This document shows positions 4,638-27,801 of a stretch of DNA of 64,000 nucleotides, piece by piece. Under the pieces are notes generated by a model. That model was not told the origin of the DNA. It saw only the letters and a list, made by a program, of their open reading frames with translations, and searched no databases. The position numbers were made by a program, and so were the translations under genes. Location: the NCBI GenBank assembly GCA_028697455.1, contig JAQVEZ010000001.1, forward strand, positions 3,902 through 67,901, written 5' to 3'. Position 1 is the first letter of the stretch, and every line of letters starts with the position of its first letter. The DNA is from Minisyncoccota bacterium (GTDB lineage: Bacteria; Patescibacteriota; Minisyncoccia; Phycocordibacterales; UBA1006).

Positions 4638-4689
4638 GCTTTGTTTTTTTTATTTATCTACAGATTATTTTATTTTGTGCAAAAAAACT

Positions 4690-4727
4690 TGCATCGGGGG
4701 GGGGGCAGGACGATATACTAGAAAGGT
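4690..4727 (+). promoter_or_regulatory. Putative promoter with a 10-G homopolymeric tract (approx 4696-4705) abutting a TATACT -10 element, 8 nt before the start codon
   Basis: Sequence gcatcGGGGGGGGGGcaggacgaTATACTagaaaggtATG. An almost identical arrangement is found at 26405-26447. Confidence 0.45.
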
Positions 4728-5279
4728 ATGAATAAATACGTAAAAATATTATTAGTAGCTTCATCCTTATTTTTTGGAGGAGCTGGAATATTATCAGCAC
4801 AGGAGATAGAGTGGTCAGAACCTTTTGCTGATCCATCAGGATATATTATTGAATGGGGCTCAGTAACTTACGGAAACAACACCTTCGTTGCGGTGGGGTA
4901 TAATTATAATACTTATAAAGGAATGATCATGACTTCATCTGACGGAACCACTTGGTCAGGACCTTTTGCTGATCCTTCAGAAAATAATATTTATTGGGGC
5001 TCAGTAACTTACGGAAACAACACCTTCGTTGCGGTGGGGTATAATGGTGGTACTGGTAAAGGAATGACCATGTATTCACTTAACAACGAGATAGTAGATT
5101 CTTCTGTTTCAAAACACTCAAGCATCTTCGGAACTCGCTTCTGCTCAGATACGGTAACTACCTTTTGTAGACCTAAGAGTGGATTTATCAACAACATTCC
5201 ATTGATTAGTATCTATACTGAACTCTTGGGGCTCTATCAACAACTCCTTTCTGCAATGCAAGGCGGAAACAGCTTATAA
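4728..5279 (+). CDS. Secreted BNR/Asp-box repeat protein (short paralog) with a conserved cysteine-containing C-terminal domain
   Basis: Signal peptide MNKYVKILLVASSLFFGGAGILSA. Two near-identical ~45-aa repeats (EPFADPSGYIIEWGSVTYGNNTFVAVGYN), one carrying the Asp-box SSDGTTW. The C-terminal ~50 aa (SSIFGTRFC...VTTFCRP..GF.NN.PL..IYTELLGLYQQLL) is shared with ORF 26448-27764. Confidence 0.6.
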   Translation: MNKYVKILLVASSLFFGGAGILSAQEIEWSEPFADPSGYIIEWGSVTYGNNTFVAVGYNYNTYKGMIMTSSDGTTWSGPFADPSENNIYWGSVTYGNNTFVAVGYNGGTGKGMTMYSLNNEIVDSSVSKHSSIFGTRFCSDTVTTFCRPKSGFINNIPLISIYTELLGLYQQLLSAMQGGNSL

Positions 5280-5295
5280 AAGCTGTTTTTTTATT
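5264..5295 (+). terminator. Rho-independent terminator hairpin aaacagctt-ataa-aagctgttt followed by a T-run
   Basis: Inverted repeat followed by TTTTTTT. The sequence is conserved with the terminator after the paralog at 27752-27782. Confidence 0.5.
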
Positions 5296-16382: not shown

Positions 16383-16808
16383 ATGAATAAATATTTTCTT
16401 GCAAAACTTTACTCATTTTTAATTTTTGCACTTTCTTTTGGCGGAGGGTTAAAAGGTGTTTTTGCTCAGGGGAAATCAGGGACTGATACCCCACCAGGGC
16501 AATCAGGATCTGACACTCCAGAAGGAGTTCCTGGGATGTCGATCAAGCTCGATAACCCTCTTGGAACAACTGACAGTATTCCTATGTTGATCAAGAGACT
16601 CCTTGATGTTGTTTTGACCATTGGGGTTCCTTTAATAGCCTTGGCTATTATTTATGCAGGTTTTCAACTCGTTACTGCTCAAGGGAATACAGAAAAACTT
16701 AAGGTAGCCAAGAGAAACCTTGTCTACGTTGTTATTGGGGCGGGAATTCTTCTTGCAGCTTATGCTATCTCTGAAGTAATCGTTGGGACCGTCACCGCTA
16801 TTCGTTAG
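16383..16808 (+). CDS. Secreted 2-TM pilin-like protein (TrbC/VirB2-like)
   Basis: Signal peptide MNKYFLAKLYSFLIFALSFGGGLKGVFA, Pro/Gly/Thr-rich spacer, TM1 VVLTIGVPLIALAIIYAGFQLV, basic loop QGNTEKLKVAKRN, TM2 LVYVVIGAGILLAAYAI. The start context (tgatatact..aaggtATGAATAAATA) is shared with the two BNR-protein genes. Confidence 0.55.
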   Translation: MNKYFLAKLYSFLIFALSFGGGLKGVFAQGKSGTDTPPGQSGSDTPEGVPGMSIKLDNPLGTTDSIPMLIKRLLDVVLTIGVPLIALAIIYAGFQLVTAQGNTEKLKVAKRNLVYVVIGAGILLAAYAISEVIVGTVTAIR

Positions 16809-16824
16809 CCACACATTAGGAATT

Positions 16825-17175
16825 ATGAACATTTTTAGAAATAAATGGATACTTACTTTGGGGGCTCTTTTGTTACCAAGTTTTGCTCTTGCTGCAACGA
16901 CCTTTAAAAATATTATTTTTTCAACGCTTGATATTATTGGAAATTATTTAATGCCAGTTTTGTTTGCACTTGCCTTGGCTTATTTTATTTGGGGAGTAGC
17001 TGATTTTATTCTATCAGCAAACAATCAAGCCGAACGAGAAGCAGGGAAGACGAGAATTATTTGGGGAATTGTGGCTCTTTTTGCAATGGTTGCGTACCTT
17101 GGACTTGTAAATATTTTTAGTTCAGGGTTCTTTAACACCAGTTCGACCTTACTTCCTCAATTGTTTACCTCTTAA
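16825..17175 (+). CDS. Small 2-TM pilin-like protein paralog
   Basis: AGGA RBS before the internal ATG at ~16825 (MNIFRNKWILTLGALLLPSFALA signal), TM1 MPVLFALALAYFIWGVADFIL, loop NQAEREAGKTR, TM2 IIWGIVALFAMVAYLGLV. Confidence 0.5.
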   Translation: MNIFRNKWILTLGALLLPSFALAATTFKNIIFSTLDIIGNYLMPVLFALALAYFIWGVADFILSANNQAEREAGKTRIIWGIVALFAMVAYLGLVNIFSSGFFNTSSTLLPQLFTS

Positions 17176-17178
17176 ACT

Positions 17179-17529
17179 ATGACATCAAATCTCAAAAAAA
17201 ATATCATTGCGCTTGGTGCAAGTACGTTCCCAGTTTTTTCCTTTGCTCAGGTAGGGCAAAATATAAAATCTTTTCTCTCTTCGATAGGAACTCTTGTTAA
17301 TGCGTATATTATTCCTCTTTTGATTTCACTTGCCCTCCTCTATACCATTCTCTCGGGGGTGAGATTGATTCAGGAATCTGATTCTGCAAAGAAAGGGGAG
17401 AGAAGAACTCAACTATTGTGGGGAATTATAGGACTCTTTATTATCCTTTCTATTTGGGGAATTCTTGCGGTATTTTCAAATACTTTTACTGAAGTCTTTA
17501 TGGGGGGGACCATACAACCTGGAAAATAG
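17179..17529 (+). CDS. Small 2-TM pilin-like protein paralog
   Basis: Signal peptide, TM1 IIPLLISLALLYTILSGV, loop QESDSAKKGERRTQ, TM2 LLWGIIGLFIILSIWGILAV. Very similar to 13756-14118 (shared motif GLFxILSIWG). Confidence 0.55.
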   Translation: MTSNLKKNIIALGASTFPVFSFAQVGQNIKSFLSSIGTLVNAYIIPLLISLALLYTILSGVRLIQESDSAKKGERRTQLLWGIIGLFIILSIWGILAVFSNTFTEVFMGGTIQPGK

Positions 17530-25884: not shown

Positions 25885-25967
25885 GCGTCGGTGGCAGAGT
25901 GGTCAATTGCACGGGACTGTAAATCCTGCGACGTTAGTCTACGGGGGTTCAAATCCCTCCCGGCGCA
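25885..25967 (+). tRNA. tRNA-Tyr (anticodon GTA), long variable arm
   Basis: GCGTCGGTGGCAGAGTGGTCAATTGCACGGGACTGTAAATCCTGCGACGTTAGTCTACGGGGGTTCAAATCCCTCCCGGCGCA. No CCA encoded. Confidence 0.85.
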
Positions 25968-26228
25968 CTTATTTTAAAGAAAGACACGAAAGTGTTTTTC
26001 TTTTTTAATAAGAAGATAAGAGGGAGGATTTGAAAAAAGTCGCCTGCAAAGCCGGACGAAGTCCGTAGGCGACGGCGGGGTCGAGGCTCTGAGCTCAAAG
26101 CCGAATCTTTGATTCTAGGCGTGAGCCAGAGCGGTGACCAAATCCCTCCCGGCGCACTTATTTTAAAGAAAGACACGAAAGTGTTTTTCTTTTTTAATAA
26201 GAAGATAAGAGGGAGGATTTGAAAAAAT
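25951..26228. repeat. Direct repeat: 191-bp unit x ~1.45 beginning inside the tRNA-Tyr 3' end; the unit contains a terminator hairpin and a GC-rich structured segment
   Basis: caaatccctcccggcgcacttattttaaagaaagacacgaaagtgtttttcttttttaataagaagataagagggaggatttgaaaaaa occurs at ~25951-26038 and ~26142-26228. The ~103-bp segment between the copies is GC-rich and carries hairpins (gtcgcct...aggcgac; gaatc-ttt-gattc). Confidence 0.8.
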
Positions 26229-26404
26229 AAAAACTCTCTAGAGGGTTTTTTGCTGTTAATGATTTTTATCCCTCACAAGAAATGCATACATTTGCTTCTT
26301 GGGTTGATGTTTGTTCTCCCGCAGGAGCCTCGTTGGTAAAAGGATCGATATATTCTTTCTTTTTCATGTTTCTAGTATACCATAATTTTTTTGAAGAAAC
26401 TCTT

Positions 26405-26447
26405 TTTACTTGACTCGGGGGGGGGGCGGAATATATAATAGAAAGGT
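26405..26447 (+). promoter_or_regulatory. Putative promoter with a 10-G homopolymeric tract (approx 26416-26425) abutting a TATATAAT -10 element
   Basis: gactcGGGGGGGGGGcggaaTATATAATagaaaggtATG. Paralogous to the element at 4690-4727. Confidence 0.45.
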
Positions 26448-27764
26448 ATGAATAAATATATTTTTACATCACTACTATCGTTATTTGTGATAGTAGGTTT
26501 TATAAGTTTTATTAATCCACACACAGCTTCTGCCCAACCTCTTGAATGGGAAGAGTTTGATCTCAGCCCCAATGAATATAATTCTATTGCCTATGGAAAT
26601 GGTGTGTATGTTGCTGTAGGAAGCGGAACCCCCATGTATTCCTCTGATGGGAAGAATTGGAATATGTCAATTCTTCCAAACGCAGCATCACTATCCTCAG
26701 TTGTTTATGGAGATGGGAAGTTTGTTGCGGTGGGGAGAACAGGTTCCCCACTTATGCAAAATATGAATCGGATTATTTACCTTTCTTCTGACGGGCTTTC
26801 CTGGGATATTGCTTCATCAATCCCCGATAAGTTAAATGCACAAAGCAATCTTCTCAGTATTTTTTATATGTATGATAATCTCAACGCTAAAGATTTATTT
26901 GTAGCCTTCGGGCAGGACTACTCTACAGGTGCTGGATCTACTAGCTTACCTTATATTGTTTATTCTTCTGATGGGGACGCCTGGCTCAGATCTACTCTGC
27001 CAATAGGTTCTGACGGAAGCCCGTCCGATGCAGTTGTAGGATATAACGAAAATGGAGAGCTTGTTCTTTTATCCTTTGTATATGGATATGGTATTGGTGC
27101 TCCTTCTTATTATATTATGTCTATTGACGGTGGAGCAACTTGGGTTTACCCGGACTCCCTTACAGGGCTTGATGATTTTCAGGGGCTAAGCATGAGTTAT
27201 CTCAACGGAAAATTTTTCTACGTGGGACATTCTTATGACGATGAAGAAGGTAAGGATCTGTTCTCTGTGAGATCCTCTATGAATGGACTTGATTGGGATA
27301 AAGGATCAATAGAGTTTCCTGAAGAATTCTTATCGGGTAGTAGGGAGACATCTGCTTATGGAGATAACACGTATCTTTTTTTCCTTTCCCCATCACTTGG
27401 TTACACACCCCCTCTCTATTCCCCCAACGGAGAAACCTGGGAATTCTTTACCCCAAGTTTTGATAAGAGTAGTTATGTATCTCCTATCCAATTAATTTAT
27501 GCAGAAGATTCATTTATGCTCCTTGGTCGAAATGAATCAGGAGGATATGTTATTGCTTTTCCCAAATCCTTGAATGATTCATCAGAAATACCTTCTTCAA
27601 AATCCTCAAGTATTTTCGGAACTCGATTCTGTACAGCAGGAGTTACTACCTTCTGTAGACCTCAGAATGGATTTACCAACAATAATCCATTAGTAAATAT
27701 TTACACTGAACTCTTGGGGCTTTATCAGCAACTTTTGAATACGATTCAAAATGAAAACAGCTAA
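26448..27764 (+). CDS. Secreted BNR/Asp-box repeat (beta-propeller-like) protein with a conserved C-terminal domain
   Basis: Signal peptide. Asp-box motifs SSDGKNW, SSDGLSW, SSDGDAW, SIDGGATW. Repeated YG.G.FVAVG blades. The C-terminal ~50 aa (SSIFGTRFCTAGVTTFCRPQNGFTNNNPLVNIYTELLGLYQQLL) is shared with 4728-5279. Confidence 0.65.
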   Translation: MNKYIFTSLLSLFVIVGFISFINPHTASAQPLEWEEFDLSPNEYNSIAYGNGVYVAVGSGTPMYSSDGKNWNMSILPNAASLSSVVYGDGKFVAVGRTGSPLMQNMNRIIYLSSDGLSWDIASSIPDKLNAQSNLLSIFYMYDNLNAKDLFVAFGQDYSTGAGSTSLPYIVYSSDGDAWLRSTLPIGSDGSPSDAVVGYNENGELVLLSFVYGYGIGAPSYYIMSIDGGATWVYPDSLTGLDDFQGLSMSYLNGKFFYVGHSYDDEEGKDLFSVRSSMNGLDWDKGSIEFPEEFLSGSRETSAYGDNTYLFFLSPSLGYTPPLYSPNGETWEFFTPSFDKSSYVSPIQLIYAEDSFMLLGRNESGGYVIAFPKSLNDSSEIPSSKSSSIFGTRFCTAGVTTFCRPQNGFTNNNPLVNIYTELLGLYQQLLNTIQNENS

Positions 27765-27782
27765 GTTTAGCTGTTTTTTGTT
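27752..27782 (+). terminator. Rho-independent terminator (acagct-aagttt-agctgt followed by a T-run)
   Basis: Conserved with the terminator after 4728-5279. Confidence 0.5.
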
Positions 27783-27801
27783 TTGTAAAAATATTTTGTC
27801 T

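Follow-up and report, generated by a model that had tools for sequence, protein, structure and literature searches.

A probable family of phase-variable, cassette-exchanged secreted proteins with poly-G promoters and a conserved C-terminal tail in a Paceibacteria genome

Much of bacterial diversity belongs to the CPR bacteria (Patescibacteria), most of which are believed to lead a life attached to other cells; very little is known about the biology of their surface, and the way in which they are recognised to vary it is by diversity-generating retroelements. In Mycoplasma hyorhinis each of the vlp genes (and likewise in the Vsa and Vsp systems) has its own homopolymer promoter next to a conserved 5' region, and expression is switched on and off combinatorially. 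We know of no description in CPR of a switchable, swappable surface coat of this mycoplasma or of the Neisseria style, and a full-text literature search found no paper on simple-sequence contingency loci or phase variation in CPR. [quoted passage not shown]

The unit at positions 26405-27782 of the window (the whole stretch of 64,000 nt that was analysed) is on balance likely to be self-contained and to belong to a multigene family, of which this Paceibacteria (CPR) MAG holds at least 10 members. The layout proposed for a member runs from a sigma-70-type promoter and a leaderless mRNA through a conserved Sec signal peptide, a hypervariable body (in most cases a six-bladed Asp-box-like beta-propeller), a Ser-rich linker and a nearly invariant tail of about 50 aa to a terminator which overlaps the stop codon. 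The ORF of this unit (26448-27764) encodes 438 aa and that of the second copy in the window (4728-5279) encodes 183 aa. The features of the two copies are the following:

26410..26415, + strand: -35 hexamer TTGACT of the 26448 promoter (consensus scan)
26417..26426, + strand: G10 homopolymer in the -35/-10 spacer, the proposed slipped-strand switch
26434..26439, + strand: -10 hexamer TATAAT, 8 nt 5' of the ATG, a leaderless-type promoter (consensus scan)
26448..26534, + strand: Sec signal peptide MNKYIFTSLLSLFVIVGFISFINPHTASA/Q, read from the sequences
26535..27572, + strand: variable body, an Asp-box-like beta-propeller with six S-x-D/N-G-x-x-W turns and YG.G.FVAVG strands
27573..27602, + strand: Ser-rich linker (…NDSSEIPSSK…), predicted disordered (pLDDT <50 from residue 381)
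27603..27761, + strand: conserved C-terminal domain SSSIFGTRFC-x7-C-RP…, followed by the amphipathic helix PLVNIYTELLGLYQQLLNTIQ (alignments A1 and A4)
27753..27784, + strand: intrinsic terminator of the 26448 copy
4689..4719, + strand: promoter of the 4728 copy, TTGCAT, a 19-nt spacer with G10 (4696-4705) and TATACT 8 nt 5' of the ATG
4728..5279, + strand: 183-aa paralog composed of a signal peptide, two blades in tandem and, at 5118-5276, the C-terminal domain found in the 26448 product
5265..5292, + strand: terminator of the 4728 copy

The sequence upstream of 26448 reads cTTGACTc-G10-cggaaTATATAATagaaaggtATGAATAAATA, as quoted in the initial annotation, and the second poly-G promoter claimed there is borne out by the consensus scan, which places the G10 run inside a promoter matching 11 of the 12 consensus positions (26410-26439, TTGACT-18 nt-TATAAT, with the spacer c G10 cggaata). 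Only two runs of at least 8 G occur in the 64-kb window, those at 26417-26426 and 4696-4705, and each sits between a near-consensus -35 element and a -10 element; overlapping G 8-mers number six against 0.6 expected, and six or more were reached in none of 100 shuffles. The -35 position is occupied by TTGCAT at the 4728 copy and by TTGACT at a third locus, L002, which has also kept some 50 nt upstream of the 4728 -35 element (78% over 92 nt). Promoters with G10-11 were thus found at three loci (26448, 4728 and L002), while an intact tract is absent from four of the eight family loci examined (L001, L003, L004 and L006); in L003, which is syntenic with L002, the tract is degenerate (caagagaaggg) and the promoter is kept. 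The assembled spacers of 18 nt (26448), 19 nt (4728) and 20 nt (L002) all exceed the 17-nt optimum. L002 combines its G11 tract with an extended -10 (TGaTATACT) and its promoter may therefore depend less on the spacer.

A hexamer resembling -10 lies 5-10 nt upstream of the start in 22 of 52 ATG genes, clustering at 6-9 nt, and the genome-wide pattern check found no Shine-Dalgarno enrichment upstream of starts. As the -10 element of 26448 ends 8 nt 5' of the ATG, in keeping with this genome-wide arrangement, the mRNAs are leaderless or nearly so. The “aaggt” in front of 26448 is discriminator sequence, and neither the “shared RBS” of the initial annotation nor a reading of “aaagg” as a Shine-Dalgarno sequence survives this spacing and the genome-wide pattern.

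The signal peptide of the 26448 product belongs to a class which also occurs in P0003, P0004, P0005, P0019, P0123 and L006. By eye its A-x-A motif (ASA) is a signal peptidase I site and a lipobox Cys is absent; the signal peptides end in ASA/Q, LSA/Q or AYA/N with no Cys of the kind that anchors lipoproteins, and inspection of the proteins found no other anchor. Ser-rich stretches equivalent to the 27573..27602 linker are present in all family members. At the 3' end the 5' arm of the terminator stem is formed by the last codons (E-N-S) with the stop codon at the stem-loop junction, an arrangement which recurs at 4728 and in L001-L005. The hairpins at the two 3' ends fold at -14.9 kcal/mol (z = -4.5) and -13.4 kcal/mol (z = -3.0), in agreement with the terminator conservation that had been noted before. 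The paralogy of the two genes is likewise upheld. Their bodies align at 35-42% identity, and body identity among the paralogs ranges from 31 to 60% (alignment A3); the two blades of the 183-aa protein are encoded by a tandem 141-nt repeat with 88% matches. The family loci are dispersed among housekeeping genes (fusA/pth, clpB/tRNA-Tyr/miaA and PBP1a/yebC). That the GC-rich insert beside tRNA-Tyr might encode another tRNA or a tmRNA was considered and rejected, Rfam returning nothing and relaxed ARAGORN a single low-threshold minus-strand tRNA-Val that was judged spurious.

Comparison between strains shows replacement of whole gene bodies. At the 4728 locus the flanks of the window and of L007 are 99-100% identical and the gene interior is unrelated; the 5' and 3' ends are shared and enclose, in near-identical strains, a 417-aa propeller unrelated to the body of the 183-aa paralog. 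L002 and L003 share flanks that are mostly 91-100% identical (85-86% in the two 200-nt flank windows closest to the gene) around bodies of 46-56% identity. L001 has the yebC-side flank in common with L002 and L003, has a non-propeller body, and is 82% identical in nucleotides to the signal-peptide stretch of 26448, the gene body being unrelated. In the model favoured here bodies are swapped by recombination between close strains, with breakpoints in or just outside the conserved ends. A search for a donor of the body of the 183-aa allele among all the proteins retrieved gave no match above 45% identity.

Variation in tract length, which the initial annotation had proposed to look for, was seen at the 4728 locus; the comparison is of that locus, and no other assembly of the 26448 locus was found. 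Two contigs from independent assemblies, L007 (G10) and L008 (G11), have a single G as their sole difference over 4,516 aligned nt. Four more independent contigs, encoding the same protein or one at least 90% identical, stop inside the tract, and in Logan data the contig ends at this tract keep 9, 10 and 11 G in different samples, although trouble with poly-G on the part of Illumina or the assembler could partly cause both the length differences between assemblies and the contig ends. Slipped-strand mispairing would alter the spacer length at each promoter with such a tract, and each gene should thereby be graded or switched in its transcription independently of the others, in the manner of Neisseria porA/opc or Mycoplasma vlp. 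That tract length affects expression is suggested by the assembled spacer lengths taken together with the spacing rules of sigma-70 promoters.

As in porA and opc, a homopolymer of about 8 nt or more, here G10-11, lies between -35 and -10; at 4728 it is polymorphic by 1 nt. The differences are that the present system belongs to a CPR bacterium with leaderless mRNA, that several paralogs each have their own tract, and that every spacer observed (18-20 nt) is longer than optimal. The likeness to vlp lies in a reduced-genome, presumably host-dependent bacterium with a multigene family whose members combine a conserved 5' region and signal peptide with a variable, presumably exposed part and would be expressed in on/off combinations; several paralogs have their own homopolymer promoter, and signal-peptide classes are common to unrelated bodies. 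However, Vlp promoters contain poly-A and Vlp proteins are anchored through an N-terminal lipobox Cys, whereas the present proteins have an A-x-A motif, no lipobox and a conserved C-terminal domain. Vlp variation resides in C-terminal repeats and the vlp genes are clustered; here whole folded bodies are exchanged and the genes are dispersed between housekeeping genes.

The tail is the best conserved part of the proteins. In the two window copies it is 72-73% identical over 55 aa, and the identity of about 80% given in the initial annotation holds for the segment quoted there (35 of 44 residues). The layout described before, two Cys and then an amphipathic helix, was recovered as a Cys-x7-Cys loop followed by a helix that AF2 predicts at residues 414-436 (mean hydrophobicity 0.23-0.29, muH 0.35-0.5), confidence being low for residues 381-412. 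The tail ends in …YTELLGLYQQLLNTIQNENS, with a polar Q-x-E-N-S end and no basic cluster. When the 56-aa tail, or its alignment, was the query of a word-index search, the sole match was the 78-aa fragment P0001, and an exhaustive profile search took its place; against 1.84e9 representatives (clusters at 50% identity) it gave 16 matches, of which about 13 are real. The domain is therefore not confined to the two window proteins, and the suggestion of a novel, modular domain of some 50 aa is strengthened by its bearers, which include several propeller subfamilies, diverged propellers, the non-propeller P0019 and the short Gly-rich P0123 and P0127. No match to the tail was found in Pfam, NCBIfam or PDB sequences, the sole weak PDB-sequence hit being a helical segment of the chaperone FliT (E = 0.76, not significant). 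Far from marking proteins across CPR proteomes, the tail is confined to one narrow lineage and was present in NCBI and Logan data only: scans of GTDB and JGI metagenome contigs, whether by the tail profile or by back-translated YTELLGLYQQ, gave nothing. Exact-protein look-ups of the window proteins, P0001, P0003 and P0004 returned no contigs. Among non-allelic copies of the tail pS is 0.31-0.74 and pN 0-0.12 (one near-identical allele pair excluded). Such diverged synonymous sites around a conserved peptide point to strong purifying selection on the tail peptide, and speak against recent gene conversion as the source of its conservation.

The family shares with the LPXTG/sortase, PEP-CTERM/exosortase, GlyGly-CTERM, PGF-CTERM and T9SS CTD systems a short C-terminal module that is lineage-restricted, sits behind a low-complexity linker on secreted proteins otherwise unrelated, and is far better conserved than their remainder. 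The analogy with LPXTG and the Por CTD drawn in the initial annotation holds for the role and fails for the structure, the tail having no transmembrane helix, no basic end and no match to a sorting-signal model. Sortase and exosortase signals differ in consisting of a signature motif, a transmembrane helix and a basic cluster, and the T9SS CTD is a beta-sandwich of 80-100 aa (PF18962, TIGR04183), whereas the tail has about 50 aa and a predicted helix. No candidate sorting enzyme was found linked to the family loci. A role as a retention or docking module specific to this lineage is probable for the tail. In the model that we propose the proteins would be exported and their signal peptide removed, the tail most likely keeping the variable domain at the cell surface or docking it to a conserved bacterial partner, and the variable propeller face would meet host, phage or environment.

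The beta-propeller fold expected for the body is confirmed at the level of prediction. Single-sequence AF2 of the 438-aa protein reached a pLDDT of 41 and the model used is that built with a 50-sequence MSA, with a pLDDT of 84 overall and above 90 across most of residues 30-375. The at least four Asp-boxes noted before correspond to real turns (SSDGKNW, SSDGLSW, SSDGDAW and SIDGGATW, with degenerate SMNGLDW and SPNGETW); the canonical 8-residue S-x-D-x-G-x-T-W spacing is found in SIDGGATW only, and profile HMMs score the 438-aa protein below threshold. The best HMM matches are DUF6242 (21.9 bits, cut-off 29), BamI_Bacteroidota and PSII_BNR, all below their gathering thresholds, and there is no match to PF02012 (BNR); the paralogs P0006 (29.9) and P0020 (30.3) marginally pass for DUF6242 (PF19755 / PF25852), for which precomputed PF25852 matches are labelled “faint”. 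What the family has in common with DUF6242, BamI and Ycf48 (PSII_BNR) is the repetition of a YG.G.FVAVG strand followed by an S-x-D-G-x-x-W turn, and BamI (9his_H) is among the structural matches of the model. It differs from them in that most turns fall one residue short of the canonical Asp-box, and in its hypervariability and novel tail. To our knowledge CPR cells have no outer membrane or BAM.

Four other explanations have to be set against the reading of the family as promoter-spacer phase-variable, cassette-exchanged surface proteins. A poly-G run that serves as a constant part of the promoter (such as a rigid spacer or regulator site) and not as a switch, with the length differences arising as sequencing or assembly artefacts, would agree with G10 in both window copies, with the error-prone behaviour of homopolymers of 10 or more G on Illumina, and with contig ends in Logan that could reflect a drop in quality or coverage and not heterogeneity. 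We nevertheless consider this reading unlikely. Two long contigs (L007 and L008) span the tract and differ there only, contig ends retain three different lengths across samples, and the syntenic allele with a degenerate A/G sequence in place of the tract has kept its promoter, so that specific binding to the G run is not required; moreover, G runs of at least 9 are hypermutable in all bacteria tested (e.g., PMC3639595; PMC5084427). A simple recent duplication would also leave two window copies alike at their two ends (5' and 3'), and what they share in promoter, tail and terminator would then be leftover identity with no modular function, but this explanation can hardly be correct given that synonymous sites of the tail are near saturation between the window copies (pS 0.52) while the peptide is kept (pN 0.12), that the bodies of these copies align only at the low identity given above, and that the tail is found on unrelated bodies in about 13 clusters.

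With regard to function, the 438-aa protein could be a secreted sialidase or glycoside hydrolase which scavenges host glycans and varies as substrates differ. The AF2 model does contain the six-bladed propeller with Asp-box-like turns that sialidases have, the top Foldseek matches include bacterial sialidases and GH propellers (E about 1e-9), and NCBI names the paralog P0015 “sialidase family protein”. Against PDB, however, Foldseek finds generic six-bladed propellers (TM about 0.4-0.52, 12-15% identity), the sialidases (TM 0.41-0.43) doing no better than Kelch domains or lectins; in the range of TM 0.41-0.52 Kelch, lectins and BamI score equally. BNR_2 reaches 16.5 bits against a cut-off of 31.4, a FRIP/RIP motif or Arg triad is absent from the 438-aa protein, and the 50-sequence alignment has no conserved Arg, Asp, Glu or Tyr columns, only M1 and structural S/G/W/F/V repeat positions being conserved. 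The two-blade allele and non-propeller bodies also have the same ends, and the enzymatic function to which the signature named in the initial annotation would point seems very improbable. The closest competitor leaves the rest of the model unchanged and sees in the tail a module for oligomerisation or partner docking (a helical bundle multimer, or attachment to a pilus or S-layer) and not an anchor. A broad hydrophobic face and only moderate mean hydrophobicity make the amphipathic terminal helix more typical of protein-protein packing than of insertion into a membrane, the two-blade 183-aa allele could close a propeller only as a multimer, and the non-significant FliT match is to a helical chaperone. 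On the other hand docking and anchoring can both hold, and no partner gene is linked to any locus, the neighbours being housekeeping genes; we regard docking in place of anchoring as possible though rather doubtful. We continue to favour, with some reserve, promoter-spacer phase-variable and cassette-exchanged proteins with a probable location on the cell surface.

More tentatively, the tail may be a previously unrecognised surface targeting or docking signal of this Paceibacteria lineage, and the family a set of combinatorially phase-variable, cassette-exchanged adhesins or decoys serving host attachment or phage escape. If true, CPR would have here their first described contingency-locus system driven by a homopolymer, and with it a handle on what these uncultured episymbionts bind would be at hand. 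Confirmation would mean that about 10 genes out of roughly 600-700 (a rough estimate of genome size from locus-tag numbering) are given to individually switchable, rapidly exchanged secreted proteins, and that promoter-spacer slippage acts on leaderless promoters. The partner of the strongly constrained novel tail could then reveal the envelope structure that displays these proteins, and the tail profile together with the G tract would provide a marker for strain-level surface variation in metagenomic time series.

The initial annotation had proposed a second poly-G promoter and paralogous proteins sharing a C-terminal tail and a terminator; this arrangement was confirmed in the sequence, and the promoter sequence that it quoted for the second copy is present at that place. 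The features of the two genes are:

26410-26415, + strand, -35 box TTGACT of the 438-aa gene
26417-26426, + strand, G10 run inside the -35/-10 spacer of the 438-aa gene
26434-26439, + strand, -10 box TATAAT of the 438-aa gene, with the ATG 8 nt after it
26448-27764, + strand, 438-aa ORF with the poly-G promoter upstream
4696-4705, + strand, G10 run in the same promoter position of the paralogous gene
4728-5279, + strand, 183-aa ORF with promoter TTGCAT-19 nt-TATACT, the -10 lying 8 nt before the ATG

In a consensus scan the promoter of the 438-aa gene matched 11 of 12 positions with a spacer of 18 nt. The two G10 tracts are the only runs of eight or more G in the 64-kb window (GC 37.5%), where six G8 matches were observed versus 0.6 in dinucleotide shuffles. 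The two proteins have a common signal-peptide style and blade motifs, and aligning their tails over 55 aa gives 72-73% identity (35/44 in the stretch quoted initially). At the 3' end of each gene is a terminator hairpin: its 5' arm encodes the final codons, and the stop codon falls where stem and loop meet.

All family members examined have 8-9 nt between the end of the -10 box (TATACT or TATAAT) and the ATG. Genome-wide, -10-like hexamers concentrate 6-9 nt before ATG (21 matches in this 4-nt band versus about one per position elsewhere), and in the whole window 22 of 52 ATG genes carry one 5-10 nt upstream, often in the extended form TGnTATAcT (e.g., 7159, 10684, and 12680 on the + strand; 35663, 41319, 49217, 54950, and 61680 on the - strand). 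SD-like tetramers showed no enrichment at SD spacing, and no gene had Shine-Dalgarno enrichment before it. Because of this clustering and the lack of an SD signal, transcription should start at the ATG or 1-2 nt before it, and leaderless mRNAs appear to be widespread in this genome. The shared motif agaaaggt, originally read as a ribosome binding site, is instead discriminator sequence. Since the -10 sits at the leaderless spacing typical of the genome, its placement confirms the position of the G tract inside the core promoter spacer. The start context of gene 16383 resembles that of the family for the same cause, its leaderless architecture. This gene, previously called pilin-like, is the first of three consecutive small genes (16383-17529) for T4SS pilins, TrbC/VirB2-like by PF18895 (37.2, 32.4, and 28.1 bits, cut-off 26.6). 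The third of them holds the next-longest G run of the window, a G7 at 17502-17508, 20 nt before the stop codon, which is a possible frameshift-type variable site.

Other features were seen around the second promoter. A 33-aa ORF (MKKKEYIDPFTNEAPAGEQTSTQEANVCISCEG; 26266-26367, - strand) is divergent from it and has its own leaderless-type promoter, TGgTATACT-6 nt-ATG. A perfect 89-nt direct repeat (25950-26038 and 26139-26227) lies some 200 nt upstream of that promoter. Its first copy starts in the 3' end (T-arm, acceptor) of tRNA-Tyr (25885-25968), and its two copies flank a 100-nt GC-rich insert; the folded stretch 26030-26165 reaches -56 kcal/mol (z = -3.4). The insert matched no RNA family in Rfam, and a minus-strand tRNA-Val, the sole low-threshold call of relaxed ARAGORN, was judged spurious. 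The arrangement resembles an att-type duplication or the remnant of a tRNA-like sequence.

Poly-G runs are error-prone on Illumina platforms. Tract length differed between assemblies at the locus of the 4728 gene (fusA-X-pth), where independent Logan assemblies encode a 417-aa protein (P0130): between the two contigs that read through the tract, G10 in L007 versus G11 in L008 is the sole internal difference in 4,516 aligned nt. Four other contigs for the same or an at least 90% identical protein end inside the tract, with 10 (L005), 9 (L009), 11 (L010), and 3 (L011) G left, and their far ends differ. At a second locus, PBP1a-X-yebC, contig L002 has G11 and a spacer of 20 nt, while the syntenic L003 keeps the promoter with a degenerate caagagaaggg replacing the tract and a spacer of 18 nt. 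Family promoters lacking an intact tract (L001, L003, L004, L006) have the extended -10 TGnTATACT, and L002, with tract and TGa together, is an exception. Both window promoters should be spacer-dependent, because their -35 boxes are good and the TG is missing. None of the assembled tracts gives the optimal 17-nt spacer. Tract length may act as a switch of expression. The direct precedent is porA, whose expression is high with 11 G in this spacer, intermediate with 10 G, and low with 9 G (PMC3639595).

Comparison of loci revealed exchange of whole bodies. Identity between the window and L007 is 99-100% through fusA and pth, about 96% in a 115-nt stretch that begins at the tract and reaches into the signal peptide, and 99.5% in the final 222 nt, which hold the tail, the terminator, and downstream sequence. 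The interiors are unrelated: the 417-aa propeller versus the 183-aa protein, which is made up of a tandemly duplicated propeller blade (a 141-nt repeat with 88% matches, 4812-5072). No donor of the 183-aa body was found among the proteins retrieved. L002 and L003 have flanks of mostly 91-100% identity over about 7 kb upstream and 3 kb downstream; the two 200-nt windows nearest the gene drop to 85-86%, identity within the gene is 46-56% up to about 45 nt from the stop codon, where it recovers. L001 has the yebC-side flank in common with both, yet encodes a non-propeller protein (P0019). It was also observed that about 50 nt upstream of the -35 (TTTATTTATCyACAGATTrTTTTAT…CAAAAAAACTTG) are conserved between different loci (78% over 92 nt; L002/L003 6918-7000 versus window 4647-4736), which indicates that the promoter module, mobile or conserved, extends beyond the core promoter; this stretch may be UP-element-like or a recombination arm.

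The 438-aa protein (P0002) matches PHC89_00200 of a 'Candidatus Pacebacteria' MAG at 100% identity; this MAG encodes at least nine further tail-bearing proteins. Family members are:

P0122, the 183-aa protein of the window (PHC89 MAG)
P0003, P0004, P0005, P0015, and P0020, propellers 31-60% identical to P0002 in the propeller alignment (PHC89 MAG)
P0019, 283 aa, with a Cys-rich acidic body (PHC89 MAG)
P0123, 130 aa, Gly-rich (PHC89 MAG)
P0001, a 78-aa fragment (PHC89 MAG)
P0006, P0010, P0012, P0024, P0029/P0130, P0126, and P0127/P0129, from Logan assemblies

An exhaustive search with a tail profile gave 16 matches at E ≤ 1e-3 among 1.84 billion 50%-identity representatives, about 13 genuine and three low-complexity repeats; none turned up in GTDB species genomes or JGI metagenomes, and the tail had no match in Pfam, NCBIfam, or PDB sequences. 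With about 13 clusters on differing bodies and empty GTDB and JGI scans, the tail, suspected initially to be a novel module, is a real modular domain restricted to a very narrow lineage. Members combine signal-peptide class, body, and tail in different ways. Their loci are single genes flanked by housekeeping genes, and every one has a promoter and a terminator of its own. The P0024 gene (L006 3981-5426), on a contig found in three samples and with an extended -10 promoter without poly-G, has an in-frame TAG after codon 47, with signal peptide and body in the same frame; it appears to be a pseudogene or a nonsense allele.

Recent gene conversion or duplication could have kept the tails alike, and was ruled out because synonymous sites have diverged: across the 41-codon core of seven genes, proportional synonymous differences were 0.31-0.74 and non-synonymous 0-0.12, with the two nearly identical 4728-locus alleles (window and L005, pS 0.04) left out. 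These values indicate conservation at the peptide level. The residues G-x-R-F-C…F-C-R…Y…L…Q are invariant in the alignment of close and distant members. In the AF2 model of the 438-aa protein a predicted disordered Ser-rich linker precedes the tail, which comprises a low-confidence Cys-loop region (residues 381-412) and a predicted terminal helix (414-436). This helix is amphipathic (muH 0.35-0.5, mean hydrophobicity 0.23-0.56), is not a transmembrane segment, and is followed by no basic tail; the defining features of sortase/exosortase-type signals and of the T9SS CTD are absent.

The AF2 model (50-sequence MSA; pLDDT 84, pTM 0.79) bears out the proposed beta-propeller, with residues 30-375 mostly above pLDDT 90 in an all-beta repeat structure. 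The sialidase or glycoside-hydrolase reading found no support. Foldseek against PDB did return six-bladed propellers, including sialidases and GH family proteins, but also Kelch, lectin, and BamI (TM-score 0.4-0.52, identity 12-15%). The 438-aa protein stays below the HMM cut-offs for DUF6242 (21.9 bits, cut-off 29), BNR_2 (16.5, cut-off 31.4), and BamI (29.8, cut-off 370); two paralogs score just above the DUF6242 cut-off. The protein has neither a FRIP motif nor an Arg triad, and in the alignment only the S/G/W and F/V positions of the repeats are invariant or nearly so. The propeller more likely has a binding or structural role than a sialidase activity.

A full-text literature search joining phase variation or homopolymeric tracts with Patescibacteria/CPR found only incidental, off-topic mentions; a different kind of hypervariable surface gene has been described in Gracilibacteria (PMC6851277). 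At the system level the family resembles the vlp-type families of Mycoplasma, differing in its poly-G instead of poly-A tract, absence of a lipobox, novel C-terminal module, whole-domain exchange, and dispersed rather than clustered genes. Functionally it would be like the porA/opc promoter-spacer switches. Each gene would be an independent contingency locus, in which slippage of the G run would shift the -35/-10 spacing and so change transcription of the leaderless mRNA; the product would be exported by Sec, with the variable propeller displayed on a Ser-rich stalk and the conserved tail keeping the protein on the cell or docking it to a conserved partner, and recombination in or near the conserved ends would swap bodies between strains or paralogs.
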